DNA of 64,000 nt from Myxococcota bacterium (GCA_022072125.1 JAJVIH010000021.1:700-64699), one strand, 5' to 3'; numbered from the stretch's first letter, positions 1-18,440 are shown. Numbers and translations: made by a program. Notes: a model not told the origin generated them from the letters alone.

Positions 1-30
1 TTTCCACGTCGTGACACTCGAAGACGGCTC

Positions 31-425
31 CGGTTCACCCCCACGTGCGTGGGGACAACTTTGCGTTCCTTTGTTAGATGTAATTAGCAACCGGTTCACC
101 CCCACGTGCGTGGGGACAACGCTCCATAACTCAGCAAGTACCAATTGTCCGGCGGTTCACCCCCACGTGCGTGGGGACAACCCCAAGCTGCGCCGTGTCT
201 AGCGCAGCCACGGCGGTTCACCCCCACGTGCGTGGGGACAACGAAAAGGAACCATAGATTGCGCTGTAAAAAAACGGTTCACCCCCACGTGCGTGGGGAC
301 AACTTGTTGGCGATGTCAACGGTTCGCGCGATTTTCGGTTCACCCCCACGTGCGTGGGGACAACAACGCGTAGGTTTTGGTTTTCCGTGAGACGGTCGGT
401 TCACCCCCACGTGCGTGGGGACAAC
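31..425 (-). CRISPR. Type I-E CRISPR array: 7 identical 29-bp repeats and six full 32-bp spacers; truncated by the window start
   Basis: Repeat CGGTTCACCCCCACGTGCGTGGGGACAAC at 31, 92, 153, 214, 275, 336 and 397 (61-bp period). The reverse complement GTTGTCCCCACGCACGTGGGGGTGAACCG has the I-E hairpin and the ...AACCG end. Orientation is from adjacency to cas2 and the AT-rich leader end. Confidence 0.99.
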
Positions 426-443
426 ACTAAAAAAAACCTGTAT
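426..443 (-). promoter_or_regulatory. Very short CRISPR leader remnant (18 bp between the cas2 stop and the first repeat)
   Basis: Minus strand reads TAA-atacaggttttttttagt-GTTGTCCCC; the T-rich ...TTAGT end resembles I-E leader/repeat junctions. Confidence 0.6.
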
Positions 444-716
444 TTACGCCATCCGAACCAGAAAAATCCCCTCGAAGTCTTCGACCGATCGCGCCGATTT
501 CCCCCAGCTCAGGACCCGGAAGCCCTGTTCATTATCACTCGAATGAATCATCACGCAACTGCCTTCACCGGCTTGGCCGCAGGCTTTTTCCCACAGTTTA
601 TCGCGCACCATGGCTGAAACCCTCCCCACGAAGACCCCCGCTTTCGGCTCCAAAAACCACCGTGTCAATTCTCCCCGCAACCCGATTGGCACGCGCTCAA
701 GAATCAGAACCACCAT
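444..716 (-). CDS. cas2: Type I-E CRISPR-associated Cas2
   Basis: MVVLILERVPIGLRGELTRWFLEPKAGVFVG is the typical Cas2e N-terminus; AGGAG RBS before the ATG at 716; overlaps the cas1 end. Confidence 0.95.
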   Translation of the reverse strand: MVVLILERVPIGLRGELTRWFLEPKAGVFVGRVSAMVRDKLWEKACGQAGEGSCVMIHSSDNEQGFRVLSWGKSARSVEDFEGIFLVRMA

Positions 717-1671
717 CGTTCTCCTCCTTTTCATCCGTGTCCACAGCATAGGAGCGTCCGCCCTCCACTTCTCCCTCCACGGGATCCCACAATGGGCCCG
801 GAGCGACGCCAGCTTGGTCGAACGGACTCTCGCCGGAAGTTCCTTTTTTGGGCAGCATCAGCGCATTCTGAATGTCCGGAATGATTCTGGCCAGAAGCCG
901 CGTTGACACAAACAGGTCGCGGCACATGATCCGCACACTTCGTTCCAGGCCGTCCTTGTTCTCCGCCGCCGCGCGAAAAGCCGCCGGTATCGTGATTTCC
1001 GATTTGTAAAGATCGGCGACATCATAAACGAAGGACAACATCTTTCCGGTGTGGATGAAGCCCAGCGCCGGAGAAAATCCCGCCGAGGCGATGGCTGCCT
1101 GGCAAATGCCATAAAGACACGAATTGGCCGCCGACAAAGCCCTGTTCACCGGGTCCGCGTTGGCCCATTCACCCCGGTAATTGCGGCCGGACCAGGGTAC
1201 CCCGGTTTCCCGGGCGGCTCTGGCGTATGCGCTCCTGACACGAACGCCTTCCATCCCGCGGATCTGTTGCAGGGTCAGCTCCGGATCGAACACCTCGGCG
1301 AATCGCAACTGGTATAACCGGCGCACGGCCTTCATATGAAGCTCCGCATCGGCCCAAACCCGCGCCTGATGAAGAAAATTCGCCGCGCTGCGCGTCTTGC
1401 CCATGCCGGCCGCGTAGAACCGGATTCCCTGTTCGCCGCACCAAGTCACCAGACAACCGTGATCCGCCAGCACGGTCACGGCGGCATGCGTGATGGAGAC
1501 GCCTGGTCCCAGCATGAGCAGCGCCAGATTGGCGCAGGGGACCGGCGCCTTGCCGGATTTGTCGTGTATGGCGATTGCCCGGGCTTCCTGGTCAATGCGG
1601 CAATGCTCGACGTAGAGATAGCTCCAGCCGTCGCTGAATTTGGGCAAAACGTGAAGGTCTTGAACTCTCAG
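697..1671 (-). CDS. cas1: Type I-E Cas1 integrase (start ambiguous: CTG at 1671 or TTG at 1647)
   Basis: SYLYVEH, LLMLGPGVSITHAAV, QQIRGMEG.RVR, NRALSAAN..LYG, GFIHTG..LSFVYDVADLYK are Cas1e motifs. Confidence 0.97.
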   Translation of the reverse strand: MRVQDLHVLPKFSDGWSYLYVEHCRIDQEARAIAIHDKSGKAPVPCANLALLMLGPGVSITHAAVTVLADHGCLVTWCGEQGIRFYAAGMGKTRSAANFLHQARVWADAELHMKAVRRLYQLRFAEVFDPELTLQQIRGMEGVRVRSAYARAARETGVPWSGRNYRGEWANADPVNRALSAANSCLYGICQAAIASAGFSPALGFIHTGKMLSFVYDVADLYKSEITIPAAFRAAAENKDGLERSVRIMCRDLFVSTRLLARIIPDIQNALMLPKKGTSGESPFDQAGVAPGPLWDPVEGEVEGGRSYAVDTDEKEENDGGSDS

Positions 1672-2504
1672 ACCGCCTCCTCCGCGCCCGGCACGGCGAG
1701 CGGCGCAACCGAAAGCAGGCCGAACCCAAATGCCTTTCCAGGGCCGATGCCCTGAACCAGCGCCTCGCGAAAGGCGTCTGGGTCCGTGACTTGCAGAATG
1801 CCGTCGAATTGGACGGAAAACAGGCGTATTCCTTTTGGGCCCTTCCCCTTTTGGTTTTCGTCCGCGTTGTCGTTGGCATTGCTTGGCTTGTTCTTGTCCA
1901 CATGGACATAGCTCGAACTGGCCGTGGCGGAGTTGATGGAGAATCCCACTGATTCGCCCCGGCGGGCAAGCCAGTCCACAAGCTGGCAGGCCGGAACGGG
2001 CACGCGCTTTCCGATGGATTCCTGTTTCTTCAAATCCGGTGATTTTTCACTCAGCCGTTTGGTCGGATTCGCCGCGAGGCGGAATCGCAGACGCTGGTCT
2101 TTCGAGAAGCGCGGATCGAATTGTTTCACCCCGGGGGGCGCCGCCAGAAGATAATCCGCATTGTGAAAGGCATAGCCCCAGTCGGGCTCAACGGCGGACT
2201 GCACGATGATCATCACCCGGCCGTTGGAAAGAGGATCAATGCGAAACAGAAAGTTCGAGTCCGAGGAGCGTTTCTTGTGGACTTGATCCTGGTCCGAGGA
2301 GCATTTGATGTAGACTTGATCCTGACCAAACTCATCCGGTTTGAACGGCTGGAGAAAGTCCGGATCGCGGGTCTTTTGGGTTCCGGACGGAAAAGCCATG
2401 CAAAGGCGCTGGTGGACACGATAGCGATTTCGGAGCCACGAGCGTCCGGGCCTGGGCTGGTCTGGGTTGTCTCCTGCATTAATCAATAGACGGGACAGGT
2501 ACAT
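1668..2504 (-). CDS. cas6e: Type I-E Cas6e/Cse3 crRNA endonuclease
   Basis: MYLSRL start, Y..HQRL..AF, FLFRID, LRFRLAANPTK and C-terminal G-rich loop GIGPGKAFGFGLLS. Confidence 0.95.
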   Translation of the reverse strand: MYLSRLLINAGDNPDQPRPGRSWLRNRYRVHQRLCMAFPSGTQKTRDPDFLQPFKPDEFGQDQVYIKCSSDQDQVHKKRSSDSNFLFRIDPLSNGRVMIIVQSAVEPDWGYAFHNADYLLAAPPGVKQFDPRFSKDQRLRFRLAANPTKRLSEKSPDLKKQESIGKRVPVPACQLVDWLARRGESVGFSINSATASSSYVHVDKNKPSNANDNADENQKGKGPKGIRLFSVQFDGILQVTDPDAFREALVQGIGPGKAFGFGLLSVAPLAVPGAEEAV

Positions 2505-2506
2505 GG

Positions 2507-3628
2507 TTATTCCACCTCTTCCGCGGAAAGCCACCGGCGCCGGGTCTCCAGTGAGCGGAACTTGATAATCTCCTCCCGCTTTTCGATGATTCGATCACGC
2601 CAGCGCGGCTCCTCGGGATTGATGCGGTCCATCCCCATGCCAAGGCCGTATTCGATCATGGTGACGGCGTCATGGCATAGCCTGCAAAGCGAACGCAGGT
2701 CTTCCAGGGTTTCGGCTCCCCCGGCCCTCCGGTAGGTGATGTGCTGGACGGTCATGCGCGGTCCGGACGACTTGCAGAAGACGCACAACCCGGCGTCGGC
2801 TTCAATCCGCTCTGCGCGGCGCTTCCGGTATTCCGTATCCTTATAGTTCGCGCGCGGGCGCGGCGGCGCCGGCGTATATTCCTGGACCGGATCGCCAACG
2901 GTCACCCCCACCTCGCCGCGCAGGACAAATCTCGGCTCGTGGACCGGTGGATCGAAGCAAACCGGCGCGTCATACCACACTTCCGCGTCATCGGGGGCGA
3001 CGTCATTTTCAGAGGCGCGCCGCCATTCCACGAGCGTTTGGACCTTCCTGTTCCGTGGCTTGTCGTCGTCCTTGTACCGCGGGCGCCATGGAATGAACTT
3101 CAACGCGGTGTTCAGGTCGTCATGGCTGGCGGGATTTGTCCACGATTCATCCTTGCCGGGCCTTGCAAGCACCGGAACGGACGGCGGGCAGGACTTGCGT
3201 CCAAGGAAAACCGGCCACTTTGGCGCCGCAACCGCCTCAGCGACCTTCTGGATCCACTTCGCATCACCTTGGAGCGCGACGAGAAAGCTCGCGTCGGCCA
3301 AGTATTCCCGGCGCGTGATGAGCGTGCCCTTGGCGCCGGTCCTCACATCACCCCCAGCGGTTGTCATACCGGTTCCGGCTCCCACCGTGTGGTAATCCCA
3401 CCAGAGCGCGCCACGGCGATCCACGCGCACGCCCATCGAAAGAGCATTCAACTCCGGCAGGCGTTGCCGCGCCTGCTCACGCGACAGCCCCATGGCGCAG
3501 CAGACGAGGCCCAGCACACCGGACTTGGTTGGGACATCCATGGTCCGCCGGATGACGAATTTTGACGTGTCGCCCCATGCCTGAAGGGGGCCTTCGAGGC
3601 GCAGGAAGAGGGTGTTGGCTCCGGTCAT
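2507..3628 (-). CDS. cas5: Cas5e fused to a C-terminal HNH endonuclease (Cas5-HNH)
   Basis: Residues 1-~245 are Cas5e (LRLEGPLQAWG, PTKSGVLGL, DYHTV, REYLADASF, FLGRKSCPPS). After a Pro-rich linker comes C282xxC285...QH296ITY...ED310L..LC315xxC318H319, a Zn-binding HNH. Confidence 0.93.
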   Translation of the reverse strand: MTGANTLFLRLEGPLQAWGDTSKFVIRRTMDVPTKSGVLGLVCCAMGLSREQARQRLPELNALSMGVRVDRRGALWWDYHTVGAGTGMTTAGGDVRTGAKGTLITRREYLADASFLVALQGDAKWIQKVAEAVAAPKWPVFLGRKSCPPSVPVLARPGKDESWTNPASHDDLNTALKFIPWRPRYKDDDKPRNRKVQTLVEWRRASENDVAPDDAEVWYDAPVCFDPPVHEPRFVLRGEVGVTVGDPVQEYTPAPPRPRANYKDTEYRKRRAERIEADAGLCVFCKSSGPRMTVQHITYRRAGGAETLEDLRSLCRLCHDAVTMIEYGLGMGMDRINPEEPRWRDRIIEKREEIIKFRSLETRRRWLSAEEVE

Positions 3629-4800
3629 ATTCCCGCCTCCACCGGCGCAGTGGGTGATTCCACTGTCCTCATGACCTCCCCGACAAAGGTGTCGAACTTG
3701 TCAAACTCGCGGGAACCGTCCACGGGTTGTTCCTGCTCGTGTTCCTTCTTCTGCCTGTCGATCCAGGTCAGGCGATGGCGAAGACCCGGCGAGAACCAGA
3801 AACGTTCGGCCTCGACGCCGTAACCTTCAATGAGTTCGTGGGCGTACTGGCCCAGTCTGGCGATGCTTTCGCCGATCAAACCACGTGTGGACTTTTCCGG
3901 CACTGGATCGGCGAAGGCGTTGGCGTAGCTGATCGGCGTGGCCTGCCTGGTTTTGATCTCCACCAGAACTCCGTCGGGCGGATTGAATGCCGCGTGGGAA
4001 TGTTGCTTGCCCGAGGGATTGGCCTTGACCGCTGCTTCGAGGAAGCAGCGGATGGTCGTCTTGGCGAGTTCCTCATCACCCCCGAGGTTCGTCTTCAACT
4101 GCTCGAAGTCAATGACGAAGTGTTTGTAGAAGCAGGCCGAATTGAACATGGCCTCGTTGACGTGGGCGGCGCCGGCGTCCTGGCCGGGCACATCGTCGGC
4201 GGCTGTGAAGTAATCCACCTCGTTGACGACCGCGTGAGTCGAGATGGCGTGAGCGGCGGAGAGCGCGGCCTCGACCGTGAACTTGCCTTTGAGAACCTTA
4301 AACGGCTCCTTTGCATCGAATTCCGTCATACGGCCGCAAAGTGCGATGTCGGGTGTCTTGACAAACTCGCCGATGATCTCGGCGAATTTCTTTCCCAGGT
4401 TACCGTTTCCGTCACGCACGGCAGCGCCCATTTTCTGGATGGCGGATTGGGGGAGAAAGAAGAGCGCATCGAAAGTGTTCTCATCCTTCTTCAGGCCGAC
4501 CCCCCCTTCTTCAAAGACCTTTCGAATGGCCTTGCAATGTTGCTCTTTAGGTGGATTGCCTTCGTCCGCCGCCTCCTTCGCGATGAGTTCGATCAGCCGC
4601 CGTGTACGCACGCCGCCGTCCTTCTCCAAAGCGGCGGAAAACTCCGGGCTGCGCCGGATGCTGCGTTTGAGACACTGGCTGGAGATGCGCGCCCGGGTGA
4701 AGCCGCCAAAGATGCAGGTCTTGGGCGCGCCCAGGTCATCCCGGTTCAGGTTCGCCGGGCCGTGGTTCTGGATCATGTGGATTTCGATCAGCATGTTCAT
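3625..4800 (-). CDS. cas7: Type I-E Cas7/Cse4 backbone
   Basis: IEIHMIQNHGPANLNRDDLGAPK, RARISSQCLKR, DIALCGRM, VDYFTAADD, NPSGKQHSHA. Confidence 0.97.
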   Translation of the reverse strand: MNMLIEIHMIQNHGPANLNRDDLGAPKTCIFGGFTRARISSQCLKRSIRRSPEFSAALEKDGGVRTRRLIELIAKEAADEGNPPKEQHCKAIRKVFEEGGVGLKKDENTFDALFFLPQSAIQKMGAAVRDGNGNLGKKFAEIIGEFVKTPDIALCGRMTEFDAKEPFKVLKGKFTVEAALSAAHAISTHAVVNEVDYFTAADDVPGQDAGAAHVNEAMFNSACFYKHFVIDFEQLKTNLGGDEELAKTTIRCFLEAAVKANPSGKQHSHAAFNPPDGVLVEIKTRQATPISYANAFADPVPEKSTRGLIGESIARLGQYAHELIEGYGVEAERFWFSPGLRHRLTWIDRQKKEHEQEQPVDGSREFDKFDTFVGEVMRTVESPTAPVEAGI

Positions 4801-5414
4801 ATTTCCTTTCTGGTTGTTGAGTTGGTATCTGTTCCGCTTCCACTGTTTTGCTCCGCCGCATCATCCGGAACTTTTGAATTAGCGGCGCCGAGATATTTTT
4901 CCGCCCAGATGTCTCGTACATCGCGTTCGAGGCGGTGCTCCTCGCCCCGGTCCCAGATGGAGAGATGGTCGAGGAGTTTCACCCAGTCAATGCCGTTCAC
5001 ATCCCGCGCATGGGGTACGCGCCCGGCGACGGCCCGGGCGGCCTCTCCCAGCGCCCAGCGCAAATGCGGCTCCAGGGAAGACAAGGACGAGCAAAGCAGG
5101 GCGTCGAATCGTTGCCGGAAGCGCTTGCGGCCATTTTCGTCGCGTGGTTCGCAGCGGCCCAGAACTACAGGCAACCACAGTTCGTCTGAACCGGACGGAA
5201 CGGGGAACGCGCCGAAAAGCTTGGCCACGAGCCATGACGGCTCCCGGCGAGGAGCCGCCTGATTTTCCTTCCGCAGCGGCCACCACAGGCCCGTGAAGAG
5301 GTCGAAACCCGGGAGCGTTTCGTCGAGCGGCCGTCCGGCCAGACGGCGCAACCGCGAGCGTTCGCCTTCCTGCAAGTTTGAAAGCTTCTGGATGTATTCA
5401 GCGGTCGGACTCAT
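4797..5414 (-). CDS. cse2: Type I-E small subunit Cse2/Cas11
   Basis: Helical protein between cas8e and cas7; GERSRLRR, RFDALL, IDWVKLLDHLSIW, WAEKY. Confidence 0.88.
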   Translation of the reverse strand: MSPTAEYIQKLSNLQEGERSRLRRLAGRPLDETLPGFDLFTGLWWPLRKENQAAPRREPSWLVAKLFGAFPVPSGSDELWLPVVLGRCEPRDENGRKRFRQRFDALLCSSLSSLEPHLRWALGEAARAVAGRVPHARDVNGIDWVKLLDHLSIWDRGEEHRLERDVRDIWAEKYLGAANSKVPDDAAEQNSGSGTDTNSTTRKEI

Positions 5415-7156
5415 TTTGAGCCTCCCTTCTTGCGGCCGCGTTTTGCTTTGCCAGGCGCGGCTTCAGCCGCGTCTGCGTTCGATGGTTGATCCGGCTTCTC
5501 TACCAGTTCTTTGATCTTGTTGTTCAGCAGGTATTCCGCGTGTTTCAGCGCGGCGCGCCGGCGAAGCGGTGAGCCGGGTGTGACGGAAGCGACAATTTGT
5601 TCGACGACCGGCTCGTAAAAAACCCAAAGAAACTTGTCGACCTCAGCGTCGGGTTGTTTGAGAGCGGCCCGCAGGCGGGACTCGGCGTCGGGTATAGCCA
5701 ATACAACAGCAGCATTGACTTCGGGGTGATCATCCTTGCCCGTCTTCTTGTTGGGTGTGGTGCACTTGACGAGAGAGCGCAGACCCTCGCGAATGCTCGC
5801 GGAGCGTTCGACGCGCTGACTAGCCGCCTCATTCGGAACGGACACGCTTGTCGCGTCTTGGAACGTGAAATCGTTTACGACGGGACCGATGGCGGATACT
5901 TTGCCTTGGCGTTGACCGCGAAGACGAAGGGCGTCGCGCCAGAACCTGCTTGCTTGAATGCCCGCATCCGCGTTCAAGTCGGGCAAGCCGAGAGCTTCCG
6001 CGTCTTTCAGCAGGTGCGGGTCCTCATCCCAGAACTTCTTGACCTGCGTGTCGTTCTTGCGCAGATGCGGCGCTTCCTGTTTGGTTGCCTTCTTGGTCAG
6101 TTCCTTGATCGCCTGATGATTGGCCGCAGTGAAAAGCTGGTGGAAGACGCGGGCGATTTTCTGTTCATCGGGTTCAGGATTTGGCGCAGCGGCGGCGGGG
6201 GTGTCGGCCGCATCAAGCGCCGCCATTCTGCATTTGCCGATGAGTTGAGCGACCTTGACTACTTTGTTGGCCAGCCTGCGCTCTTTTGTTTCTTTTGACT
6301 TGTAACCATTGTTGATTTTCTGGAACTCGGCCAAGACGTCCTTTCCGAATTGCTGGCCCCGGGTGACGGGAGTGGGCCACCCTCTCTCAATTGATAGGGT
6401 TTTGACAGGCGTTCCAATTTGCCCACAGTTTGCACAAGGACCATTTTCCCCATCGTTATTCAGCCAGAACTTGCGGGGCCGCCAGGCAAGCAGGGCCACC
6501 GTGTCAGGTGAATCCGGCTGCTTGTTGCTTAACCATGGAGCCTGATCAACTTGCGGATTTTTTTCTGGAAGGTTCGCGCAAAGAGTATGGAGCAGGTTCC
6601 TCTCTTCAATCAATGCATAAGCCGCGGAGCCGGGGTTGACTGATGCGGGATAATGCCCGTTGGCCGGAGCCCAGACCGAGAGCCGCAAGATTCCCATCGC
6701 GCAACAAGCGGGGCAAAACCCATAGGAATCATCATACACAACATGGCGCATGTGATTCACCGAATTCGCTCCAGGGAACTCGACGAGCAGATCGCCGATG
6801 GGCCGAGGCTTTATTTTATTTTGCAGCGAGGCGTCCTGATAGAACCTTTTGCCATCGCCCAGCAGATTGAACGCGGCCCGGTTTGCCTCCAGCTTCGCCA
6901 GCCAGTTTTCCGGTATGCCCGCGCTCGACTCGTCCAGTTCCGCAAGGGAAGACTTGGCGTCCTCCTTGCACCACATGAGCACGGCCAACAGAAATCGCAG
7001 GAGCGCCACCCTGTCCATCGGGTTGCTGGCGGCTATCAGCCGGATCTGGTGCGCGCCGGTCAGCGCCTGGAGGATGCCCACGCGATCCACTTTCCCGTTG
7101 CTGTAAAGAACGGGTATCCACTTTTCGCAGAGCAGGTTGTATGATGAAGTACTCAT
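5411..7156 (-). CDS. cas8e: Type I-E large subunit Cas8e/Cse1 (581 aa)
   Basis: YNLLCEKWIPV, FNLLG..RFYQ, FCPACC, NLLHTLCANL, WRPR, CxxC, DPH. True start is the ATG at 7156 after an AAGGA RBS; the upstream part of the 841-aa ORF is not coding-like. Confidence 0.92.
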   Translation of the reverse strand: MSTSSYNLLCEKWIPVLYSNGKVDRVGILQALTGAHQIRLIAASNPMDRVALLRFLLAVLMWCKEDAKSSLAELDESSAGIPENWLAKLEANRAAFNLLGDGKRFYQDASLQNKIKPRPIGDLLVEFPGANSVNHMRHVVYDDSYGFCPACCAMGILRLSVWAPANGHYPASVNPGSAAYALIEERNLLHTLCANLPEKNPQVDQAPWLSNKQPDSPDTVALLAWRPRKFWLNNDGENGPCANCGQIGTPVKTLSIERGWPTPVTRGQQFGKDVLAEFQKINNGYKSKETKERRLANKVVKVAQLIGKCRMAALDAADTPAAAAPNPEPDEQKIARVFHQLFTAANHQAIKELTKKATKQEAPHLRKNDTQVKKFWDEDPHLLKDAEALGLPDLNADAGIQASRFWRDALRLRGQRQGKVSAIGPVVNDFTFQDATSVSVPNEAASQRVERSASIREGLRSLVKCTTPNKKTGKDDHPEVNAAVVLAIPDAESRLRAALKQPDAEVDKFLWVFYEPVVEQIVASVTPGSPLRRRAALKHAEYLLNNKIKELVEKPDQPSNADAAEAAPGKAKRGRKKGGSK

Positions 7157-7175
7157 GATTCTTTCCTTTTCAGAC

Positions 7176-7204
7176 ATATTACAGTGAAATTTCACGCGCT
7201 GCAA
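7176..7204 (-). promoter_or_regulatory. Sigma70-like promoter for the I-E cas operon with an internal 12-bp palindrome
   Basis: Minus strand TTGCAG-N17-TAATAT; GTGAAATTTCAC (7184-7195) lies in the spacer. Confidence 0.5.
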
Positions 7205-7564
7205 GCTGCGCCCGGCGTAAAGGGACCGGCGCCAGCCGGGCGTGGTCCACCGGATATGCGGCCGCGTCGTTGATGGTGTGCGCCAGTCTCCCGGAGGTGT
7301 TGAAACCACTGAAAGCCTGGCGTCCACGATGGAGCGGCTGGAGTGTTTCGCGCGCCGCGACCATGCTCTCGCGACGGTTCGCGGAGAGCGGCGGTGATTT
7401 TGATGGATGTATCCTTGCACCGTGGCCGTCCGGAATGGAAAATGTGAGGTATTGACGGAATCCTGCAACGTGCTCGTGCGGAGCGGGCCCGGAATCTCCC
7501 GTCTCACACGGGAGAGCGGCGTGCGCCGGGACGAGCAAACAGCGCTGTTCGAGGGAGACGAAAG

Positions 7565-8782
7565 ATGAGCACCATGGCGACCACCGAAAGGCGCGCGCAG
7601 CGGCTGGCGCTGCTCGTCGGATCGAACCCGCTCCCCAACTACCTCGCGGCCTGCGCGCTGCGACCGAGCCGCATCGCACTCGTGTACACCGAGCAGACCA
7701 GAGAGGCGAAGGACCGCCTTGGGGGCGAGCTGACCAACATTCTGGGCAGCCATGTCGCCGTCGACGAGCCGTTCGTGGAGGATCCAACCTGCGCCACGAC
7801 GGTCCGTCGAGTCCTCGATCCGTTCATGCGGAGCGAAGCCGGCGGAGAAGTGCTCTTGAACTACACGGGCGGCACGAAGGTGATGGCCGCCCACGCCCGG
7901 CTGGCCTTCTCGTGCTTGGGTGGGCGGCCAGAACATGCGTCGTACCTCGACGAGGGCGGCATGGACCGTCCACCGCGACTGCGCTTCGACGACGGGAACT
8001 CGAAGCCTCTCTCCGACTACCTCGAGATCCCGCTGACGCTAGCTACGGTGCTCGCACTACACGGCATCACGCACAAGCCGCAGGGGACCCCGGCTTCCAC
8101 GACCGACGATGCGTGCCAGATCTTGTGCAAGGTGCTGGCGGACCCGCCCCTGGCGGCCAAGCTCTACAGCGAGCGCAAGCGGCTTCAGAAGCTCGGCAAC
8201 CCGAACAAGGCGATATCGGAGCCCTTCCGGGCGGACCGCTACGGCTTGTCGCTTAGCCTGCAGGAGTTCCCAACGGAGACACAACTCAGTTCATTCAAGA
8301 ACAGCAAAGAGAAGGAGTCCTGGTTCAAGCAGTGGTTCTCCTTCATCGGCGGCGAGTGGCTGGAAATATGGCTTGGCGACCAGATCCGCGCGCTCGAACG
8401 GGATCCAAAGCCCGAAATCACGGTCGGAGTGAACGCATACCGCGGCGACAGTAGGGCGCAGCTCGAGGTTGATGTCGCCGTCGTCCGCAGTCACCGATCC
8501 TACTTCATCTCATGCACGACGGATCAGACAAAATCGCTCTGCAAGTCCAAGTTATTCGAGGTGGCTGTCCGCTCCCGTCAACTCGGAGGAGACCTCGCCC
8601 GGGCCGCCGTGGTCTGCCTCGCTGATGACCAAACGGTCTCCGCGCTACAGAACGATGTCGATGACGTATGGGGTGCCAGCAACACGACCAGGGTCTTCGG
8701 CATCTCGGACGTCCGCGCGTGGTCCGACTGCGAAGGCAAGCAGCCGAGCCGGCAGAAGCTGAAGGAATGGTTGGAGAGCTGA
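7565..8782 (+). CDS. CARF + PD-(D/E)xK-like nuclease effector (Card1/Can2, DUF1887-like)
   Basis: CARF motifs LLVGSNPLPNY and LNYTGGTK; C-terminal GEWLE...EVDVAV...FISCTT; first gene of the type III operon. Confidence 0.85.
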   Translation: MSTMATTERRAQRLALLVGSNPLPNYLAACALRPSRIALVYTEQTREAKDRLGGELTNILGSHVAVDEPFVEDPTCATTVRRVLDPFMRSEAGGEVLLNYTGGTKVMAAHARLAFSCLGGRPEHASYLDEGGMDRPPRLRFDDGNSKPLSDYLEIPLTLATVLALHGITHKPQGTPASTTDDACQILCKVLADPPLAAKLYSERKRLQKLGNPNKAISEPFRADRYGLSLSLQEFPTETQLSSFKNSKEKESWFKQWFSFIGGEWLEIWLGDQIRALERDPKPEITVGVNAYRGDSRAQLEVDVAVVRSHRSYFISCTTDQTKSLCKSKLFEVAVRSRQLGGDLARAAVVCLADDQTVSALQNDVDDVWGASNTTRVFGISDVRAWSDCEGKQPSRQKLKEWLES

Positions 8783-8783
8783 G

Positions 8784-10451: not shown

Positions 10452-11095
10452 CGAATGGCACTTCGCCTTCCTTCCTGCAGATCGAGCTGCTCTCCGACAC
10501 CACGTTCAGTCGTGGCGAGGGCGCGGCGGGGGTCGTCGACACCGAGGTCGAGAGGGACAATCTCGGGATGCCGTTCATCGGCGGGAAGACCGTGCGCGGC
10601 CTCCTTCGCGACTCATGGCTCTCCATGTCCCGCCACTTCCCGAGCCTCGTGGACGCGGCCGCGCGGGTCCTGGGGCGGAGCCAGGCCGTCGACGAGTCGT
10701 GTCGGCTGAGGATCGGTGACGCGATGCTGCCTGCGGCGATCCGGGCCGCGGTTCGGGGAGCGGCCGAGCGAGAGGAACACCCGCTCGCGCCGGGAGCCAT
10801 CCTCGACGGCTTCACGAGCATCCGCTACCAGACGGCCGAGGATCGCGAGACCGGCGCTCCGGACGTCACAACGTTGCGGTCGTCACGCCTCGTTCTCCGC
10901 GGCTTCGTGTTGGAGGCGAGTCTCTCCTGGCTCGACGGCTACCGGCCCACAGCGTGCGATATGCGGCTCCTGGCGCTGTGCGCGCTTGCGACCCGTCACG
11001 GCGGGCTGCTTCGGAACCGAGGACGCGGTCATATCCGCATGACCCTGGACGGCGATCTCGAGAAGACGCGGAAATACGCGGAGGCGACGACGTGA
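10448..11095 (+). CDS. cas7: Cas7-group RAMP (Csm3-like)
   Basis: IELLSDTTFSRGEG..GVVD.EVERD..GMPFIGGKTVRGLLR and C-terminal GLLRNRGRGH loop. Confidence 0.9.
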   Translation: MTNGTSPSFLQIELLSDTTFSRGEGAAGVVDTEVERDNLGMPFIGGKTVRGLLRDSWLSMSRHFPSLVDAAARVLGRSQAVDESCRLRIGDAMLPAAIRAAVRGAAEREEHPLAPGAILDGFTSIRYQTAEDRETGAPDVTTLRSSRLVLRGFVLEASLSWLDGYRPTACDMRLLALCALATRHGGLLRNRGRGHIRMTLDGDLEKTRKYAEATT

Positions 11096-12834
11096 GCTCT
11101 TCGGCCGCCCCGACCTACCTCCACTACAGGCTGCAGCTTCGGTCACCAGCCATCGTTTCGACCTTGTCGGGCGATCCCAACAGCATAGCCACGCAGTCCT
11201 TCATTCCAGGGGGCGCGCTTCGCGGCGTCTTGGCCGGTCGGCTTCTCGCGAGCGGCGTCGGTGGAGACGACGAGGAGTTTCGGCGGCTCATCCTCTCCGG
11301 TGAAGTCCGCTACCTTCATGCATTCCCCGAACTGGCAGGAAAACGCTCCCTGCCCAGCGCTTTATCCTGGAAGACCAACAAGGTGGATCCGGCCCGCGTG
11401 ATCGACCTTGCCGCGTTCAGTGGAGCGATCGATACGGCTGTCGATGCCGAAGACTTCAAGAACGTTTGGCCGGAAGAGGGGCTGGCCGCCGTTTCCGCCC
11501 CGTTCGCAGCCGTGTCGGTTTCCAGTGGAGCCCGCGACATCGCGGCTCCATCAATCGGCTCCCGGATCCACCAGCAACGGGATCGCATCAAAGGGCGGCC
11601 ATGGAAGGATCGCGAAGAACAGCCTCATGGCGCGCTCTTCGTCTACGAGTACCTGGAGGCCGAGCAAGTCTTCCGCGGCGCCATCCAGGTCATGCCAGCG
11701 GCTGCCGGAGACATCGAGATCATCAAGCAGTTGCTCGTTTCTAGCCCCATTCTGATCGGGCGATCCCGCCGGGCAGGATACGGTGGTGAGGCTGCCGTCG
11801 AGTTCACCGGGCAGGTGCGGCGAGAGTACGAGAACGTATCCGAATCGGTTTCCCAGGATGTCGCCGCTGGCGAATTGTTCAGGGTGCTTCTTGCCTCCGC
11901 GTATGTGGGCCGCCACCCGGAGACGGGACAGCTCGATCCGAGCGCGCTTCCAGACGAGCTTCTCAGCCGGTTGGGCGGCGCCGCGACGGTCGAGCGCACG
12001 TGCTGGACCTTCGAGGTCGTTGGAGCGTTCAACCAGAAGTGGCGCCTCGAGGTTCCGCAGGCGCAGGCGGTCGCGGCTGGGGCCGTGCTCGTTCTCAAGG
12101 CGACGTCTGCGATCCCCCTGGCCACGCTGCGCGCCATCGAGCACGAGGGCCTCGGCGAGCGGCGGGTCGAGGGCTTCGGTCGGGTGCTGTTCCTGGAGCA
12201 CTCCGACGACCGCGGGACGATTCGGCTGCGGCGCGCCGAGGATCACGAGCAGACGGACGCCACGGCGGCCACAGCCCTCGCGCCCCAGGGCGAGCAGTCT
12301 CGTCGCCAGCTTGATCTCCTGGAACGGAGGATCGTGCTCGCGGCTGCGCGGGCGGAACTGGATCGAGTTGCCGCGCTCGACCTGGCCGCCAAGGCGAAAG
12401 GCAAGCGACCGACGAATAGCCTGCTTGGTCGGCTTCGGACCCTGTTCCGGCGGTCCATGGACGAGCAGGCCGCGCAAGCGGCGCTGGCGAACCTCCGGAT
12501 CTGGTGCAGCGACGACGACGACCATGCTCTCAAGAAGAACGCGCGTGAGCAGCTCGATCGCTGCCTAGTCAACCGCGAGGGGTTCGGCTGTGAGGAGTTC
12601 CGCCGTTGGCTTCGCCGGCTGGCCGAGTCGGATCACGGCGAGCCTGGCTGGGAGGCCCTGGTCCTGGCCTCCGGGAATCAGGCCACGCTGACAGGACTCG
12701 CGGCCAGGAGCCACCTCACCACTGGTGCCGAGGCTGAAGCCGTCCTGCACGAGCACTCGGCACTGCTGCGCGTCCACCTTGTCGACGCGGTCCTGGGCGC
12801 CATGGCCCGCCTGAACCGGAGAGGTGCGACATGA
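11092..12834 (+). CDS. csx10: Csx10 (double RAMP, Cas5-like) with a C-terminal helical Cas11-like domain
   Basis: GTG start overlaps the upstream TGA. FIPGGALRG, IGRSRRAGYG, second RAMP with GLGERRVEGFGRV, then ~170 aa helical tail with RPTNSLLGRLR. Confidence 0.8.
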   Translation: MSSSAAPTYLHYRLQLRSPAIVSTLSGDPNSIATQSFIPGGALRGVLAGRLLASGVGGDDEEFRRLILSGEVRYLHAFPELAGKRSLPSALSWKTNKVDPARVIDLAAFSGAIDTAVDAEDFKNVWPEEGLAAVSAPFAAVSVSSGARDIAAPSIGSRIHQQRDRIKGRPWKDREEQPHGALFVYEYLEAEQVFRGAIQVMPAAAGDIEIIKQLLVSSPILIGRSRRAGYGGEAAVEFTGQVRREYENVSESVSQDVAAGELFRVLLASAYVGRHPETGQLDPSALPDELLSRLGGAATVERTCWTFEVVGAFNQKWRLEVPQAQAVAAGAVLVLKATSAIPLATLRAIEHEGLGERRVEGFGRVLFLEHSDDRGTIRLRRAEDHEQTDATAATALAPQGEQSRRQLDLLERRIVLAAARAELDRVAALDLAAKAKGKRPTNSLLGRLRTLFRRSMDEQAAQAALANLRIWCSDDDDHALKKNAREQLDRCLVNREGFGCEEFRRWLRRLAESDHGEPGWEALVLASGNQATLTGLAARSHLTTGAEAEAVLHEHSALLRVHLVDAVLGAMARLNRRGAT

Positions 12835-14357
12835 GTCCGAACCCGCTCAACGATGCCATGCCGCCCCGCGCTCTAGTAGCGCGGTGGGTCATCCGAGGAA
12901 CGCTGACCATCGACACCGCGCTCCATCTCGGAGGGGAGGGAACCGAGCGGGTGGACATGCCGGTGCTGCGCGATCCCCGTGACGGCAGACCCTTGCTCCC
13001 GGGTACAACCATCGCCGGAGCTTTGCGCAGCGCGCTGGCCGACCGGCTGGCGGGCTACGGACAAGCCGAGCCCAAGGAGGTCGCCGCTCTATTCGGTGCT
13101 GCTCGCGGGGACGACGAAGGCGGCCAGAGCCCGCTCATCGTCTTTGACAGCCTGGGCGCGTTGCCAGAAAACCAATCCGTCGAGATTCGCGACGGGGTCG
13201 CGATTTCCCCGGCAACCGGAATCGCAGAGGACCATAAGAAGTACGATTACGAGGTGCTCCCGGCTGGAACAACGTTCCCGGTTCGGCTCGACCTCCTGTT
13301 GCCCGGCCCATCCACGGATCGCAATGATGCTCGTCCGGAAGAGAAAGAGATCCTTGAATGTCTCGCGGCCGCCCTCGATGCGTTTACTCACGGCGAGAAT
13401 GGATTGGGCGCCAAGCGATCGCGTGGCCTCGGGCGAGTCAGTGCGCGGTGGACCGCGAAACGCTTCGGTCTCGACTCTCGCGAGGGCTGGATACAATGGC
13501 TTATCTCTGACCACGAGCATCCGGTCGTAGCGACCCCGGACCAGGCCTGCATCCGCGACGCGCTCGAGGCCGCTGCGCCGGAGTCTCTCAGGCCGCTCGC
13601 ACTGCCCGGCGACGTACGCACGAGGGTCGTGATCGACCTGAATTTGGAGGTCGGCCATGACATCCTGGTCCGCAGCCCGGGCACGGATCCTGGCGCCCCC
13701 GACGTCTCGCACCTGCACAGCGGGGGCACCGCGATCCTCCCCGGGACGAGCGTCGCGGGAGTGATGCGCGCACAGGCGCTGCGCATCGCGAAGCTGGTCC
13801 GGGAAGGCAAGAACGACGCTAATGAATGGATCGATCGTCTATTCGGCCCGCGCTTTGAGGGGCAGCGTCCCTCGGGAAAGCTGAGCCCCCGCGCGGCGCG
13901 ACTGCGCTTCAGTGAGGCGCGGCTTAAGGGCGGCAGGCCGCAGCGGCAGACGCGGATCGCCATTGATCGCTTCACTCAGGGAGTCGTTGATGGCGCGCTC
14001 TTTGACGAGCAGACGGAGATCGGCGGCCGCGCGATCGTACGGTTGGAATTGCGGAATCCCGAGCCTGGCGAACTGGGTCTCGTGCTCCTCGTGTTGAAGG
14101 ATCTGCTCGATGGGGCGCTGCCCGTCGGCGGCACGGCCAGCGTGGGCCGCGGCGTTCTTCGTGGTTCCGCTACCGTTACCTGGTTCGATGGGACTGGGCC
14201 CCGCCAGCGTTCTGCCCGGATCCAGCCGGGCGAACAACCGGACGGCGATGCGGCTGCGGACATTGATGAGGCGATCCGCGTCTTTCACGAGGCGGGCGCC
14301 CGGGCAGGTGAACCGGCTGACGGGGCGGCGGGCGCCGGAGTGGGGGACTCGATATGA
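12831..14357 (+). CDS. cas7: Tandem Cas7-Cas7 RAMP fusion
   Basis: Two Csm3-like units: LHLGG...VDMPVLRD...PGTTIAGALR...GAKRSRGLG and LPGTSVAGVMR...RIAIDRFT...GGTASVGRG. Confidence 0.9.
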   Translation: MSPNPLNDAMPPRALVARWVIRGTLTIDTALHLGGEGTERVDMPVLRDPRDGRPLLPGTTIAGALRSALADRLAGYGQAEPKEVAALFGAARGDDEGGQSPLIVFDSLGALPENQSVEIRDGVAISPATGIAEDHKKYDYEVLPAGTTFPVRLDLLLPGPSTDRNDARPEEKEILECLAAALDAFTHGENGLGAKRSRGLGRVSARWTAKRFGLDSREGWIQWLISDHEHPVVATPDQACIRDALEAAAPESLRPLALPGDVRTRVVIDLNLEVGHDILVRSPGTDPGAPDVSHLHSGGTAILPGTSVAGVMRAQALRIAKLVREGKNDANEWIDRLFGPRFEGQRPSGKLSPRAARLRFSEARLKGGRPQRQTRIAIDRFTQGVVDGALFDEQTEIGGRAIVRLELRNPEPGELGLVLLVLKDLLDGALPVGGTASVGRGVLRGSATVTWFDGTGPRQRSARIQPGEQPDGDAAADIDEAIRVFHEAGARAGEPADGAAGAGVGDSI

Positions 14358-14998
14358 ACGAGACCGGATCGCCTTGCGCCCTCGCAGGTTGTGACCTGAC
14401 ACCCCTCGATTCCCCGGCCTGCGAGCGATACGTCTCGTGGCTGCTCGGCGAGGAGAACGCCGTCGCGCCCGGGAGCGCAACTAGGCTTGCCTGGGCGCTC
14501 GCCCACTCCGGCGATGGCGTGACATGGGGCCGTTACGATGCGCAGAAAGGAGTTTGGCTCCTTGGGAACCAGGCGGCATCCGATGTGTCGCCGCCGGTCC
14601 GCGCGGAGACGCTGCAAGAACTGCGGCTCTTCGGTGATGGTGGCGAGGTCCTCATTTGGCGGACCGGCGCGGGGCTCCGGGGACGCATGCTTCGTGATAC
14701 CGATCCCGCGGCGGGTTGCGGCGACGAGGCCAATCCCCTACGCCCATCGGAGGAGTGGCGCATCCTGCGCGGCGACCGCATCATCAAGGACGCTGGCCAT
14801 GACTTCACGCATATTGGCGACGGCGCGGGTGCGGAGCAGGTGCTTCCGCTGGCCGTCAGCAGCAACGAACAGCTTCGAGCCCGTCAGGTTCAGCTCGCAG
14901 TGCGCCACTACTACGAGTCCGACGTGCATACGGGCGCCGTCCGCATCGCGGCGACACGCCTCGTCACGCTCAGGTCGGGAGGCGGCCATGGCGCTTGA
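14354..14998 (+). CDS. csx19: Csx19 (TIGR03984-like) type III-D subunit
   Basis: WALAHSGDGVTWG, LQELRLFG..GEVLIWR, VRHYY; position between Cas7x2 and TIGR03986. Confidence 0.85.
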   Translation: MNETGSPCALAGCDLTPLDSPACERYVSWLLGEENAVAPGSATRLAWALAHSGDGVTWGRYDAQKGVWLLGNQAASDVSPPVRAETLQELRLFGDGGEVLIWRTGAGLRGRMLRDTDPAAGCGDEANPLRPSEEWRILRGDRIIKDAGHDFTHIGDGAGAEQVLPLAVSSNEQLRARQVQLAVRHYYESDVHTGAVRIAATRLVTLRSGGGHGA

Positions 14999-16778
14999 GA
15001 AGGGGATCCTCCGTGTGTCCAAGTCTGGTTCGGTGCAGATCGAGGTCGCCACGAAGAAGGGAGGAACCGCGAAGCTGAGCCCAAGCGAGGGCGAGATCTC
15101 GCAAAGCGTGCTCGACCGTCTCGCCGACCTCGCCGGCAAGGAGGTCGAGTTCGAGCGCGTGGAAGGCCAGCCGAAGAAGGTCCGGGAGGCTGGTGGATCC
15201 TTCGTCCCGCCTCGCCGCGAGACCCGAGAAGGTGATCGGGAGAAAGGGCGCGCGGACCGTAGTGGCGGCTTCCAGCCGGGCCGCCGGCAAGAGCGTCAGG
15301 ATCGGAGGGAGGAGATGCCTTGCCGTCAACCCGACTTCCACAACCCCTACAACTTCGTGCCGGCCCCTCCTCGGAACGTCAGCGATCCCGACCTGGGTGA
15401 TCATCGGCCCGTCGACCAGGACGTCTTCCTGGCCGACCGCTACTCCGGCTGGATCCGCGTACGGATGACCGCGAAGACGCCCTTGCTCGTTCCAGATACC
15501 GAGGGAGCCCAGGAGAGCCCGAACGGACACAAGACCTTTCCGCTGCGCGTGGGAGCGGACGGGAGACCGCTCATCCCGGCCTCCAGCGTTCGCGGGATGC
15601 TCCGCGCCGCCTACGAGGCCATCACGAACTCGCGCTTCGGTCGCTTCTCCGAGTCTCACAAACAGAAGCTGAAGTTTCGGCAGAATCATAAGCCGTTCAA
15701 GAAAGTAGACTACAAAACGTCAGCCTGGGACCTGCTCGACGAGTCGCTCCGGCCCGCTGTTGCCATCAATCAACTCTCGCCTGCCGACCGGGTCTTCGGC
15801 TGGGTCAAGGTCGATGCGGACACCGGACCGCGATCGAGGGGCGAGCGCGTGGCGGCCCGGGGGCTCTTACGCGTCGGTCCGGTGCGCTGCATATCGAGCA
15901 CGGCCAATGCAGTTGAGCGGTTCCAGGAGCCGGGGGTTCCGCTCGCCATTCTGTCGGCGCCCAAGCCCCAGCAGGGGCGCTTCTACGTCGCCCGGTCCAC
16001 GAAGGGTGAGGCGCAGAAGAACGGCCTATCCAAGCAGGAAGCGGGCTATTCGGCGGGCAAGGGGCTTCGCGGCCGCAAGGTGTACCCGCATCAGCGCCAC
16101 GGCCACTGGGATGATCCGACCGCGGACCGGACGCAGCAAGCGCACGGTACGCCAACCCACCACTACCAGGAATATCGGCGCCCTCGCAGGGGTGGCCACG
16201 AGCAACGCGACGATCAGAACCGCTCGATCCTCGGCTGGGTCAAGCCTGGCGCGAAGTTTGGCTTTGACCTCCACGTTCAGAACCTGTCAGCCGTCGAACT
16301 TGGCGCGCTCTTGTGGCTCCTTGGCCTCCCGGACGGCTGCTTTTTGCGCTTCGGCGGCGGCAAGCCGCTCGGCTTCGGCAGCGTAAGGCTCGACGTCGAA
16401 TCTCTCGATGTGCGAACTGGAAACGACCTTCGCGCGCGCTATGGCGCGTGGTGCGATAGCACGCCGTCAGCGAACCCGTGCATCACGGTGATTCAAGCCT
16501 TTCAAGAGGCTGTAGTGCGCGCTTACCATGTGGAAAATGGCGGCTTCGACAGTGTGCCCTTCATTGCGGCCTTTCTGACCGCCTGTCAGGGGCATGGGGA
16601 TGGCCTTCCGATCCACTACCCCCGGGCCACGGCGAACGGCAAGCCGGGGCCGCCGCGTCCCGATGGTGAGTCGTTCAAGTGGTTCGTGGCGAACGAGCGG
16701 GATGGAGCGCGATATACGCTGCAAAACCTTGTGAATGATCCGGGGCTTCCCACGCTGCCAGAAAAGGACCGGAAATGA
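14988..16778 (+). CDS. cas7: TIGR03986-type Cas7 RAMP of type III-D
   Basis: FHNPYNFVP, TPLLVP, IPASSVRGMLR..YEAITNS, SPADRVFG, LRGRKVYPH, ELGALLW, GGGKPLGFGS. Confidence 0.9.
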   Translation: MALEKGILRVSKSGSVQIEVATKKGGTAKLSPSEGEISQSVLDRLADLAGKEVEFERVEGQPKKVREAGGSFVPPRRETREGDREKGRADRSGGFQPGRRQERQDRREEMPCRQPDFHNPYNFVPAPPRNVSDPDLGDHRPVDQDVFLADRYSGWIRVRMTAKTPLLVPDTEGAQESPNGHKTFPLRVGADGRPLIPASSVRGMLRAAYEAITNSRFGRFSESHKQKLKFRQNHKPFKKVDYKTSAWDLLDESLRPAVAINQLSPADRVFGWVKVDADTGPRSRGERVAARGLLRVGPVRCISSTANAVERFQEPGVPLAILSAPKPQQGRFYVARSTKGEAQKNGLSKQEAGYSAGKGLRGRKVYPHQRHGHWDDPTADRTQQAHGTPTHHYQEYRRPRRGGHEQRDDQNRSILGWVKPGAKFGFDLHVQNLSAVELGALLWLLGLPDGCFLRFGGGKPLGFGSVRLDVESLDVRTGNDLRARYGAWCDSTPSANPCITVIQAFQEAVVRAYHVENGGFDSVPFIAAFLTACQGHGDGLPIHYPRATANGKPGPPRPDGESFKWFVANERDGARYTLQNLVNDPGLPTLPEKDRK

Positions 16779-18088
16779 CGCAGACCCCATCCACGCTCCT
16801 TATCTGTACGGTAGGCGGCAGCCCAGAGCCGATCGTCAAGGCGCTGATCCACTGGCAACCCATCAGAGTTTGGTTCGTCCCGACGGCTCAGACCAGGGGA
16901 AGCATCGAGCATGACAGCGTTGACCGTGGGAAGACCATACCAAGCATCCTTGGCGCAGCCAGGATTGCCGGGTTTCCGCTCGACCCTGGCCGATATGACA
17001 TCCATGAGTTGAGCAACGGGGAAGACCTTGCCTTGTGCTTGACCGAACTGCAGCGTTTGACGGGCTGTGTTGAGCAATGGGTCAAGCGAGGCGAAAACTT
17101 TAACGTGGTTGTCGATTTCACCGGCGGCACCAAGTGCATGTCGGTGGCGGTTGGGCTCCAGGCCAGCCGATGGCCATGCGTGTTCTCATACGTTGGTGGT
17201 GCACAGCGGACCAAGGACGGCGTAGGAATCGTCGAGTCCGGTCATGAGCGCGTTGTGCATCATGCGAACCCGTGGGATGCGCTCGGCTATCAAGCCGTCG
17301 AGGACTTCATCGTGCTGTTCGATCAGCGCGCATTTCTCGCGGCTGCGAATGTCGCTGAGGTGGCGAAGAAGCATATGAGCCGCGAGGATCGGAAGCGTGA
17401 GTTCGCCGCCTTGGAGCATCTCGCGAAGGCGTACGACGCCTGGGATCGATTCGAGCACGCGGCGAGCAACACCTGTATCGAGAAGGTCGCAAACTCGGCC
17501 AACGATCTGCGCGCCGTGCTCGGTTCAATCAAGGGCGACCGGGTTCTCACCAGCAGAGACCGTCTCACTAACCATCTCGGCGCGCTGTGCCAGGCAGATC
17601 CGCCAAGCCGCCATCACGTGCTCGACCTGTTGGCGAACGCGAAACGTCGAATGGAAGAAGGCCGGCTCGATGACGCCGTCGCCAGGCTTTACCGCGTGAT
17701 CGAAGCCGTGGCTCAGGTGGCGTTGAAGGAGCAATATAATTTCGAGAGCACCGGGAAGATTCCACTTGATCGCGTTCCGGAGCCGCTTCGGGGGCTGTGG
17801 GCATCGCGGGCGAACGAAGGCGCCGCCGCGCTCGGCCTCCAAGACACGTACGCGCTCCTTGGGGCCTTGGGCGATCCGCTCGGACAAGAGTTCAAGAAAA
17901 AAGGGCTCGATGGCGAGAAGTCGCCGCTGATGGCCCGGAATCGCTCCATTCTCGCGCACGGCTTCGATCGGGTCTCAGGCAAAGTCTTCGACACGCTGTG
18001 GACCGCGGCGCTTGCGCTCGCCGACGTCAAGGAGGCGGACCTGCCGTCCTTTCCCGTCCTCGGAAACCAGTTGAAGAGCGAGGGCTGA
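16775..18088 (+). CDS. CARF-HEPN ribonuclease effector (TIGR02710 / Csm6-like)
   Basis: CTVGGSPEPI, VDFTGGTKCMS, DAVARLYR..E and HEPN motif RNRSILAHG. Confidence 0.88.
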   Translation: MTQTPSTLLICTVGGSPEPIVKALIHWQPIRVWFVPTAQTRGSIEHDSVDRGKTIPSILGAARIAGFPLDPGRYDIHELSNGEDLALCLTELQRLTGCVEQWVKRGENFNVVVDFTGGTKCMSVAVGLQASRWPCVFSYVGGAQRTKDGVGIVESGHERVVHHANPWDALGYQAVEDFIVLFDQRAFLAAANVAEVAKKHMSREDRKREFAALEHLAKAYDAWDRFEHAASNTCIEKVANSANDLRAVLGSIKGDRVLTSRDRLTNHLGALCQADPPSRHHVLDLLANAKRRMEEGRLDDAVARLYRVIEAVAQVALKEQYNFESTGKIPLDRVPEPLRGLWASRANEGAAALGLQDTYALLGALGDPLGQEFKKKGLDGEKSPLMARNRSILAHGFDRVSGKVFDTLWTAALALADVKEADLPSFPVLGNQLKSEG

Positions 18089-18297: not shown

Positions 18298-18440
18298 TCG
18301 TTTTATGCTTTCTATCTGAAAAGAATCGAAATTTTGATTTATATTTATGCTATTGGAAAAAATCGGAATGATCGCATAGAATCTAGGCGTGTGGTTGTTT
18401 TTGTTTGTTATTAATAGGGTTAATCTACCGAGGAATCGAT

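Follow-up and report, generated by a model that had tools for sequence, protein, structure and literature searches.

The 64,000-nt stretch of DNA analysed here (hereafter the window; Myxococcota bacterium, GCA_022072125.1 JAJVIH010000021.1:700-64699) carries two CRISPR-Cas systems arranged back to back: on the minus strand, a type I-E system of the variant in which Cas5 is fused to an HNH nuclease, and on the plus strand, a type III-D effector cassette. A first-pass annotation had remarked that the III-D operon (7565-18088) is without repeats, cas6, cas1 or cas2, and that the only array and the only Cas6 in the window belong to the I-E system, which is transcribed divergently across a 408-bp gap; it proposed that both effectors could draw on one pool of CRISPR RNAs (crRNAs). 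Array scans and profile searches over the 64 kb, the range within which the absences of arrays and cas genes given below hold, bore out both observations. The host is a deep-branching member of the Myxococcota; low-coverage traces of it appear in numerous sludge and bioreactor metagenomes produced by several studies. Genes were called from matches to Pfam, NCBIfam and PADLOC profiles, and their coordinates are collected in Table 1.

The minus-strand genes include a complete set of I-E effector subunits (cas8e, cse2, cas7e, cas5e and cas6e by Pfam, NCBIfam and PADLOC), and no open reading frame (ORF) of the 64-kb window matched a cas3 family. The Cas5e-HNH protein consists of a PF09704 domain (residues 6-196) and a C-terminal HNH domain (PF01844, residues 282-322), and the Cys4 and His residues of the HNH motif are invariant across 23 homologues. 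Judged by its genes, the system is an intact, Cas3-less type I-E Cas5-HNH variant with its own adaptation genes, Cas6e and array, which supplies immunity by cutting DNA. It is a typical member of the variant already described (Altae-Tran et al., 2023, PMC10910872; structures 8YB6 and related, PMC11794572), with which it shares the gene order cas8e-cse2-cas7e-cas5HNH-cas6e-cas1-cas2 and the absence of cas3. It differs from the described systems in having a type III neighbour, which was seen in none of its 80 surveyed relatives. The cas8e reading frame can be extended up to 7936; this longer version was rejected because the Cse1 match starts no earlier than residue 267, and translation from the ATG at 7156 yields the usual N-terminus. 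Cas8e, whose C-terminus is a tail rich in Lys and Arg (...GKAKRGRKKGGSK), is the least conserved I-E subunit (36-69% identity among relatives). In cas6e, a tandem duplication of 33 bp at 2259-2324 (two copies, 87% matches) encodes an 11-aa repeat and leaves the catalytic His motif unaffected. The idea that this insert is an adaptation for handing crRNAs over to another complex was discarded, since the length of the insert varies in all I-E-HNH relatives and only the 11-aa duplication is special here.

The array runs past the left end of the window, where a partial spacer occupies positions 1-30, and it has at least seven repeats. On the crRNA (minus) strand the repeat reads GTTGTCCCCACGCACGTGGGGGTGAACCG and forms a hairpin of 7 bp in the stem and 4 nt in the loop, as in the I-E repeats of E. 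coli, followed by an 8-nt 3' tail, GUGAACCG. Cleavage by Cas6e would therefore leave GUGAACCG as the 5' tag of each crRNA, in agreement with the tag that had been predicted. The same repeat recurs in 40 or more related I-E-HNH loci, with its 3' end, GTGGGGGTGAACCG, conserved. The first repeat lies 18 nt past the stop codon of cas2e (426-749 region), which means that leader and cas2 coding sequence must overlap; a spacing of about 15-20 nt between cas2 and the array is also found in I-E-HNH relatives. No second array was found anywhere in the 64-kb window. The spacers vary among populations, as metagenome contigs from X1 and X2 depart at repeat borders (150-300) into other spacers. The six full spacers, masked at every sixth base, gave no exact match in IMG/VR.

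Table 1. Features of the type I-E Cas5-HNH system, the divergent gap and the type III-D cassette (window coordinates).
Feature	Coordinates	Strand	Remarks
Type I-E CRISPR array	1..425	-	Seven exact 29-nt repeats at 31-425, 61-bp period, six 32-nt spacers
cas2e	444..749	-	Cas2e E 6e-35
cas1e	697..1647	-	PF01867; 50-83% identity to I-E-HNH relatives
cas6e	1668..2504	-	Likely start is the methionine of MYLSRL; catalytic-His motif YRVHQRL conserved
cas5e-HNH fusion	2507..3628	-	CxxC...H...CxxCH HNH/zinc motif intact; PDB 8YB6 E 2e-135
cas7e	3625..4800	-	PF09344 E 3e-91
cse2 (cas11e)	4797..5414	-	Profile match
cas8e (cse1)	5411..7156	-	581 aa; profile match
Intergenic region, divergent	7157..7564	.	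408 bp
CARF + PD-(D/E)xK nuclease (Card1/Can2-like)	7565..8782	+	First cassette gene in nearly all relatives
cas10d	8784..10451	+	555 aa, no HD domain; GGDD cyclase motif (LLGGDDL); PADLOC Cas10d E 2e-102
cas7 (small)	10448..11095	+	215 aa; equivalent of Cas7 part of III-Dv Cas7-Cas5-Cas11 fusion
csx10 (type III-D Cas5)	11092..12834	+	GTG start overlaps cas7 stop codon
cas7-2x (double Cas7)	12831..14357	+	8S9T_D E 3e-25
csx19	14354..14998	+	TIGR03984 E 2e-23, above cut-off
cas7-insertion (TIGR03986 RAMP)	14988..16778	+	596 aa; 8S9T_E E 6e-122
csm6 (CARF-HEPN)	16775..18088	+	R-x4-6-H motif RNRSILAH, residues 388-395

All eight III-D genes have intact frames, tight or overlapping junctions and conserved catalytic motifs, the III-D components match III-D models along their whole length, and the GGDD of Cas10d is invariant in 28 homologues. 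Csx10 matched TIGR02674 (E 2e-25) under the curated cut-off (90 vs 177 bits) and was assigned by the PADLOC model Cas5_IIId (E 5e-89). With its GGDD motif, its two CARF effectors and a trace of RNA in situ, the cassette, as far as its genes tell, is complete and looks functional. What it has no counterpart for is the machinery of guide production. Beyond the I-E set, cas6, cas1 and cas2 are absent from the window; none of the 39 ORFs between 19.5 and 64 kb, a housekeeping region, matched a Cas family in PADLOC (E<=1e-3), and the first 20 kb yielded no I-G, Cas3 or PF10040-Cas6 remnants at a cut-off as loose as E<=10. The gap between the two operons contained no detectable sigma-70 consensus, terminator, cas remnant or obvious shared operator. 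Signalling through S-adenosylmethionine-AMP, as in the III-D2 type (PMC13294483), was rejected, the accessory genes being CARF proteins; the CorA encoded in the window is an ordinary transporter of Mg2+ (E 2e-63 in Pfam, only 8e-7 in PADLOC).

The closest solved complex is the III-Dv effector 8S9T, as judged by the Cas7-insertion and Cas7-2x matches (Table 1) and by the Cas10 profile (1e-40); Csx10 alone gave no match in a sequence comparison with the PDB. The III-Dv system of Synechocystis sp. PCC 6803 (8S9T-8S9X; PMC11026444) has the same order of cas10, the cas7/cas5 part, cas7-2x, csx19 and cas7-insertion, and in both systems Cas10 retains GGDD without an HD domain and CARF accessory genes lie alongside. 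The Cas7-Cas5-Cas11 fusion of III-Dv is not found in the window, where Cas7 and Csx10 are encoded by separate, overlapping genes; some PADLOC models (PDLC02091) span Cas7 plus Csx10, so that fused and split forms coexist in the family. A second difference concerns guide supply: Synechocystis has Cas6-2a, adaptation genes and an array with 37-nt repeats, whereas the III-D cassette of the window has none of these. In the III-Dv complex every subunit is present once; the bound crRNA is 37 nt long, of which 8 nt are tag and about 29 nt spacer, and the complex produces cyclic oligoadenylate (cOA), which activates the CARF RNase Csx1 (PMC11026444). The cassette of the window is built along III-Dv lines, with Cas10, Cas7, Csx10, Cas7-2x, Csx19 and Cas7-insertion each encoded once. 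Given a bound crRNA of 37 nt, the 32-nt spacers of the I-E array would be long enough for a complex of this kind.

A total of 80 species-representative loci around Cas10d relatives, each with +/-10 kb of flank, were surveyed. The block card1-cas10d-cas7-csx10-cas7x2-csx19-cas7ins is kept as a unit in nearly all of them. An array was in view in 12 of the 80 loci (11 of the 47 that have at least 8 kb of flank) and in none of the nine closest loci; the arrays that do lie beside relatives have 35-37-nt repeats ending ATTGAAGC, ATTGAAAC, TTGCGAC, GGAAAC or similar. In the Cas10d tree, the window falls into a well-supported clade of 10 members (SH-aLRT, the Shimodaira-Hasegawa-like approximate likelihood ratio test, 99), whose branches are short and extend over at least five phyla. 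Such a tree indicates that the cassette has been transferred horizontally, recently and often.

Beside the cassette of seven relatives (L172, L173, L002 (=L171), L032, L019, L022 and L046) we observed type I-G genes (cas7g, cas5-6g, cas3g), and three of these loci (L172, L173 and L002) fall in the closest clade and its close kin. In L172 (592-16325; Cas10d 78% identical) the cassette sits inside an I-G operon, all on one strand and with overlapping junctions, in the order cas7g (csb1), cas5-6g (csb2), card1, III-D core, a CARF gene and cas3g. The cas3g gene lies directly downstream of the cassette in L173 and L002, L173 having in addition a csb2 fragment upstream, and in L032, L019, L022 and L046 either csb1/csb2 or cas3g adjoins the cassette (PADLOC E 1e-50 to 1e-175). 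Six further close relatives showed no partner within the available sequence; one adjoins a type I restriction-modification system. What these composites share with the window is the same cassette (Cas10d up to 78% identical), lacking an array and Cas6 of its own and docked to a type I system. They differ in the partner, which is I-G (Cas7g, Cas5-6g, Cas3g) in the relatives, and in arrangement, as the L172 cassette is embedded in the type I operon and co-oriented with it, whereas that of the window is divergent. The recurrent I-G/III-D composites are new, no description having been found in the literature searched. Taken over the surveyed gene neighbourhoods, the cassette family is normally without a guide supply of its own and adjoins a type I guide-making system far above chance, and this excess of adjacency argues for functional coupling.

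Two parts of the cassette vary within the family. The Cas7-insertion protein of the tight clade occurs in two length classes, one of about 596-621 aa (the window at 14988-16778, L004, L171, L173, L175) and one of about 847-874 aa (L001, L165, L168, L172, L174), suggesting that a segment of about 250 aa was gained or lost. The slot after the III-D core also varies (window 16775-18088; L001 18724-19788; L083 18162-19403; L031 10557-11708), while the upstream Card1-like gene is nearly constant. This slot is taken by Csm6 (CARF-HEPN) in the window and L173, by a Cas_APE2256 CARF protein in at least 8 loci, by an SLFN/AlbA-HATPase protein in L004 and by CARF-RelE in L031.

The suggestion that the two operons differ in codon style and were acquired separately was examined from two sides. 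The difference in codon style is real but modest: the I-E genes have a GC content at third codon positions (GC3) of 0.70, as against 0.77 in the III-D genes and 0.77 +/- 0.03 in host genes, and the codon-usage distance between the two modules is 0.109, compared with 0.046 in a half-vs-half control of host genes. These distances set both modules apart from each other and from the host. Relatives in other organisms are, at the level of sequence comparison, the stronger evidence for a separate origin. Cas10d relatives at 70-80% identity occur, among other groups, in Bacillota, Acidobacteriota, Schekmanbacteria and Gemmatimonadales; for Cas5-HNH there are over 2,600 relatives, at 65-81% identity, in Synergistaceae, Desulfovibrionales, Nitrospirae and Phycisphaerae. 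Each module thus has relatives 70-81% identical in unrelated phyla, none of them with the other module, and separate acquisition is supported.

Contigs from two metatranscriptomes matched the locus with 0 mismatches on I-E genes, on the cas2/leader segment 425-619 and on the 3' part of card1 (8385-8603). The contig at 425-619 stops exactly at the first repeat. Since coverage of housekeeping genes is patchy, these contigs represent RNA and not DNA carry-over, and they speak, if weakly, for activity of both operons in situ.

Because the cassette family usually comes without array, Cas6 and Cas1-2, its gene content implies that the III-D cassette must depend on crRNAs made in trans. As donor we consider the neighbouring I-E array the most likely, with the cassette borrowing crRNAs made by Cas6e; we favour this reading while giving it not quite an even chance. 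The family habit of docking to type I systems makes such borrowing plausible here, and the presence of only one array and one Cas6-family gene in 64 kb counts for the I-E donor. From the observed anatomy of the locus, its intact parts, the mobility of the family and this docking habit, we infer the loading of I-E crRNAs. The steps would be as follows. Cas6e would cut the pre-crRNA into units with the 8-nt GUGAACCG tag, a 32-nt spacer and a 21-nt hairpin. A fraction of these RNAs would be taken up by Csx10, Cas10d and Csx19, which would need either to capture the 61-nt Cas6e product or to receive it after its release from Cas6e, and 3' trimming would then shorten them to about 37 nt, so that crRNAs would be partitioned between HNH-Cascade and the III-D complex. 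The shared spacers would then direct DNA cutting by HNH-Cascade, dependent on a protospacer-adjacent motif (PAM), and PAM-independent RNA sensing by the III-D complex. Upon binding a complementary transcript, the latter would make cOA, which would switch on the two flanking effectors, the Card1-like DNase/RNase and the Csm6 RNase.

A precedent exists in Marinomonas mediterranea, where experiments showed that the III-B system uses I-F crRNAs made by Cas6f, an enzyme that also stays on its hairpin (PMC5576922). In M. mediterranea MMB-1 (III-B/I-F) and in the chimeric locus of Marinomonas sp. MWYL1 (cmr, cas6f and an I-F array), a horizontally acquired type III effector is combined with guides from a type I Cas6 (Silas et al., 2017, PMC5576922), and the PAM-independent back-up for a DNA-targeting type I system seen there is what we propose here. 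The window differs in that the donor would be I-E (Cas6e, 29-nt repeat, tag GUGAACCG), the effector is III-D and not III-B, the partner is a Cas3-less HNH variant, and the case is drawn from the genes. Composite I-B/III, I-A/III and I-C/III loci (Vink et al., 2021, PMC8482600; Bernheim et al., 2020, PMC7145637) resemble the window in layout, with one array and adaptation module and two effectors, one of which targets DNA and the other RNA; the I-E/III pairs in the survey of Vink et al., in contrast, never shared a repeat.

Several observations weigh against borrowing from the I-E array. The III-A system of Serratia uses neither I-E nor I-F crRNAs, in what is the only published test of type III use of I-E guides (PMC5576922). 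A large survey recorded I-E/type III pairs with distinct repeats only (n=3) and never with shared repeats, and found I-E spacers to be biased to the template strand (PMC8482600). Cas6e, moreover, normally stays on the crRNA hairpin as a subunit of Cascade (PMC5965381). The tags predicted from arrays beside relatives of the cassette end in ...AAC, ...AGC or ...GAC (e.g. AUUGAAGC), as opposed to the I-E tag GUGAACCG, and one close relative, L165, has its own Cas6, a stand-alone PF10040 gene right after the cassette, with no array. In the two metatranscriptomes no RNA contigs fell on cas10d through csm6. The pairing itself was not seen to recur: I-E genes were found within +/-10 kb of related III-D cassettes in 0 of 80 loci, and III-D genes near related I-E-HNH systems in 0 of 80 metagenome loci, chosen around Cas5-HNH relatives with +/-10 kb of flank, of which 27 extend at least 1.5 kb and 20 at least 4 kb upstream of cas8e.

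The same I-E-HNH/III-D synteny, which the first-pass annotation had suggested looking for in other genomes, was accordingly seen in none of 160 related loci, and among the surveyed III-D loci the window is the only case with an I-E neighbour. A Pfam tally of 232 flanking ORFs from 51 III-D loci likewise placed no I-E family among the 25 most frequent entries in either half (Cas_APE2256 8, Cas3 5, GSU0054 5, Cas1 4, Cas6 2). The pairing of an I-E HNH variant with III-D is new, as it was not found in these 160 loci or in the literature searched.

This singularity bears directly on the main competitor of I-E borrowing, namely that the III-D complex is fed by another array and processing enzyme (a stand-alone Cas6 or an I-G Cas5-6g) elsewhere in the genome, outside the window, adjacency to the I-E system then reflecting defence clustering or a shared integration hot spot. 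We regard this as a serious possibility that stops some way short of an even chance. The synteny being unique to the window locus fits such a source, as do the partners seen in relatives, which are I-G or PF10040/PF01881 Cas6 and never I-E, and the arrays of relatives with their 35-37-nt repeats and AUUGAAGC-type tags; the sole experimental test of I-E guides in a type III system was, in addition, negative. Against it, the first 20 kb hold no I-G or Cas6 remnant and the other 44 kb no cas gene, and in three close relatives the partner abuts the cassette, so that a partner at a distance is the rarer arrangement among the cases with a partner in view.

A second explanation would make the cassette a recently landed passenger that is currently unguided, either silent and decaying or working without CRISPR guides. 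The extreme mobility of the family, the lack of an array or partner in view at most loci and the restriction of III-D RNA contigs to card1 agree with it. We nevertheless hold it to be unlikely, as the eight frames are intact with tight or overlapping junctions and preserved catalytic motifs, III-D GC3 equals that of the host, and proteins 70-85% identical across phyla point to strong purifying selection. That the juxtaposition is an assembly chimera of two organisms, as might be suspected of a metagenome-assembled genome whose two modules both have close relatives in many organisms of similar habitats, is very improbable, given that overlapping small contigs from independent sludge and bioreactor runs of other studies tile 7067-7910 (cas8e start, gap and card1) with no competing joints, that a strain variant in X1 spans 7225-8898 and that the window lies within a 132-kb contig.

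Borrowing of type I guides by type III effectors is known for I-F, I-B, I-A and I-C, and the principle is therefore not new. To our knowledge, however, no such borrowing is known for I-E, the best-studied type I system; Cas6e is thought to pass its product to Cascade only. The locus bears on the question of what backs up a Cas3-less HNH-Cascade, which cuts precisely and only once, when mutants escape it through changes in PAM or seed, and with one array, one Cas6e and two effectors in about 18 kb, the window offers a compact natural test case. The wider pattern may be the more general result: one III-D cassette in at least five phyla, mostly array-less, occurs repeatedly beside or inside I-G operons. 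In a broader reading, which we put forward tentatively and as clearly less than an even bet, the family may be a promiscuous, cross-phylum plug-in RNA sensor that loads crRNAs from whichever type I processing enzyme its host provides, be it Cas5-6g alongside I-G or, at the present locus, Cas6e. On that reading, the locus would be the first found in nature where I-E crRNAs guide a type III effector, and the first to pair a Cas3-less, precise HNH-Cascade with an abortive back-up driven by cOA. The mobility of the cassette fits the idea that flexible guide use lets type III modules spread, and if it takes differently tagged guides, it could serve as a portable RNA-sensing module for diagnostics.

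Directly after csm6, at 18405-19271, lies a gene for a 288-aa Ser/Thr protein kinase that is clearly foreign by composition (GC 0.42 and GC3 0.36, vs a genome GC of 0.62). Its best PADLOC matches are the defence-associated kinases mad6, PD-T4-6 and Stk2, and large kinase-TPR genes occur just upstream of the cassettes in two relatives (L004/L083 and L171).

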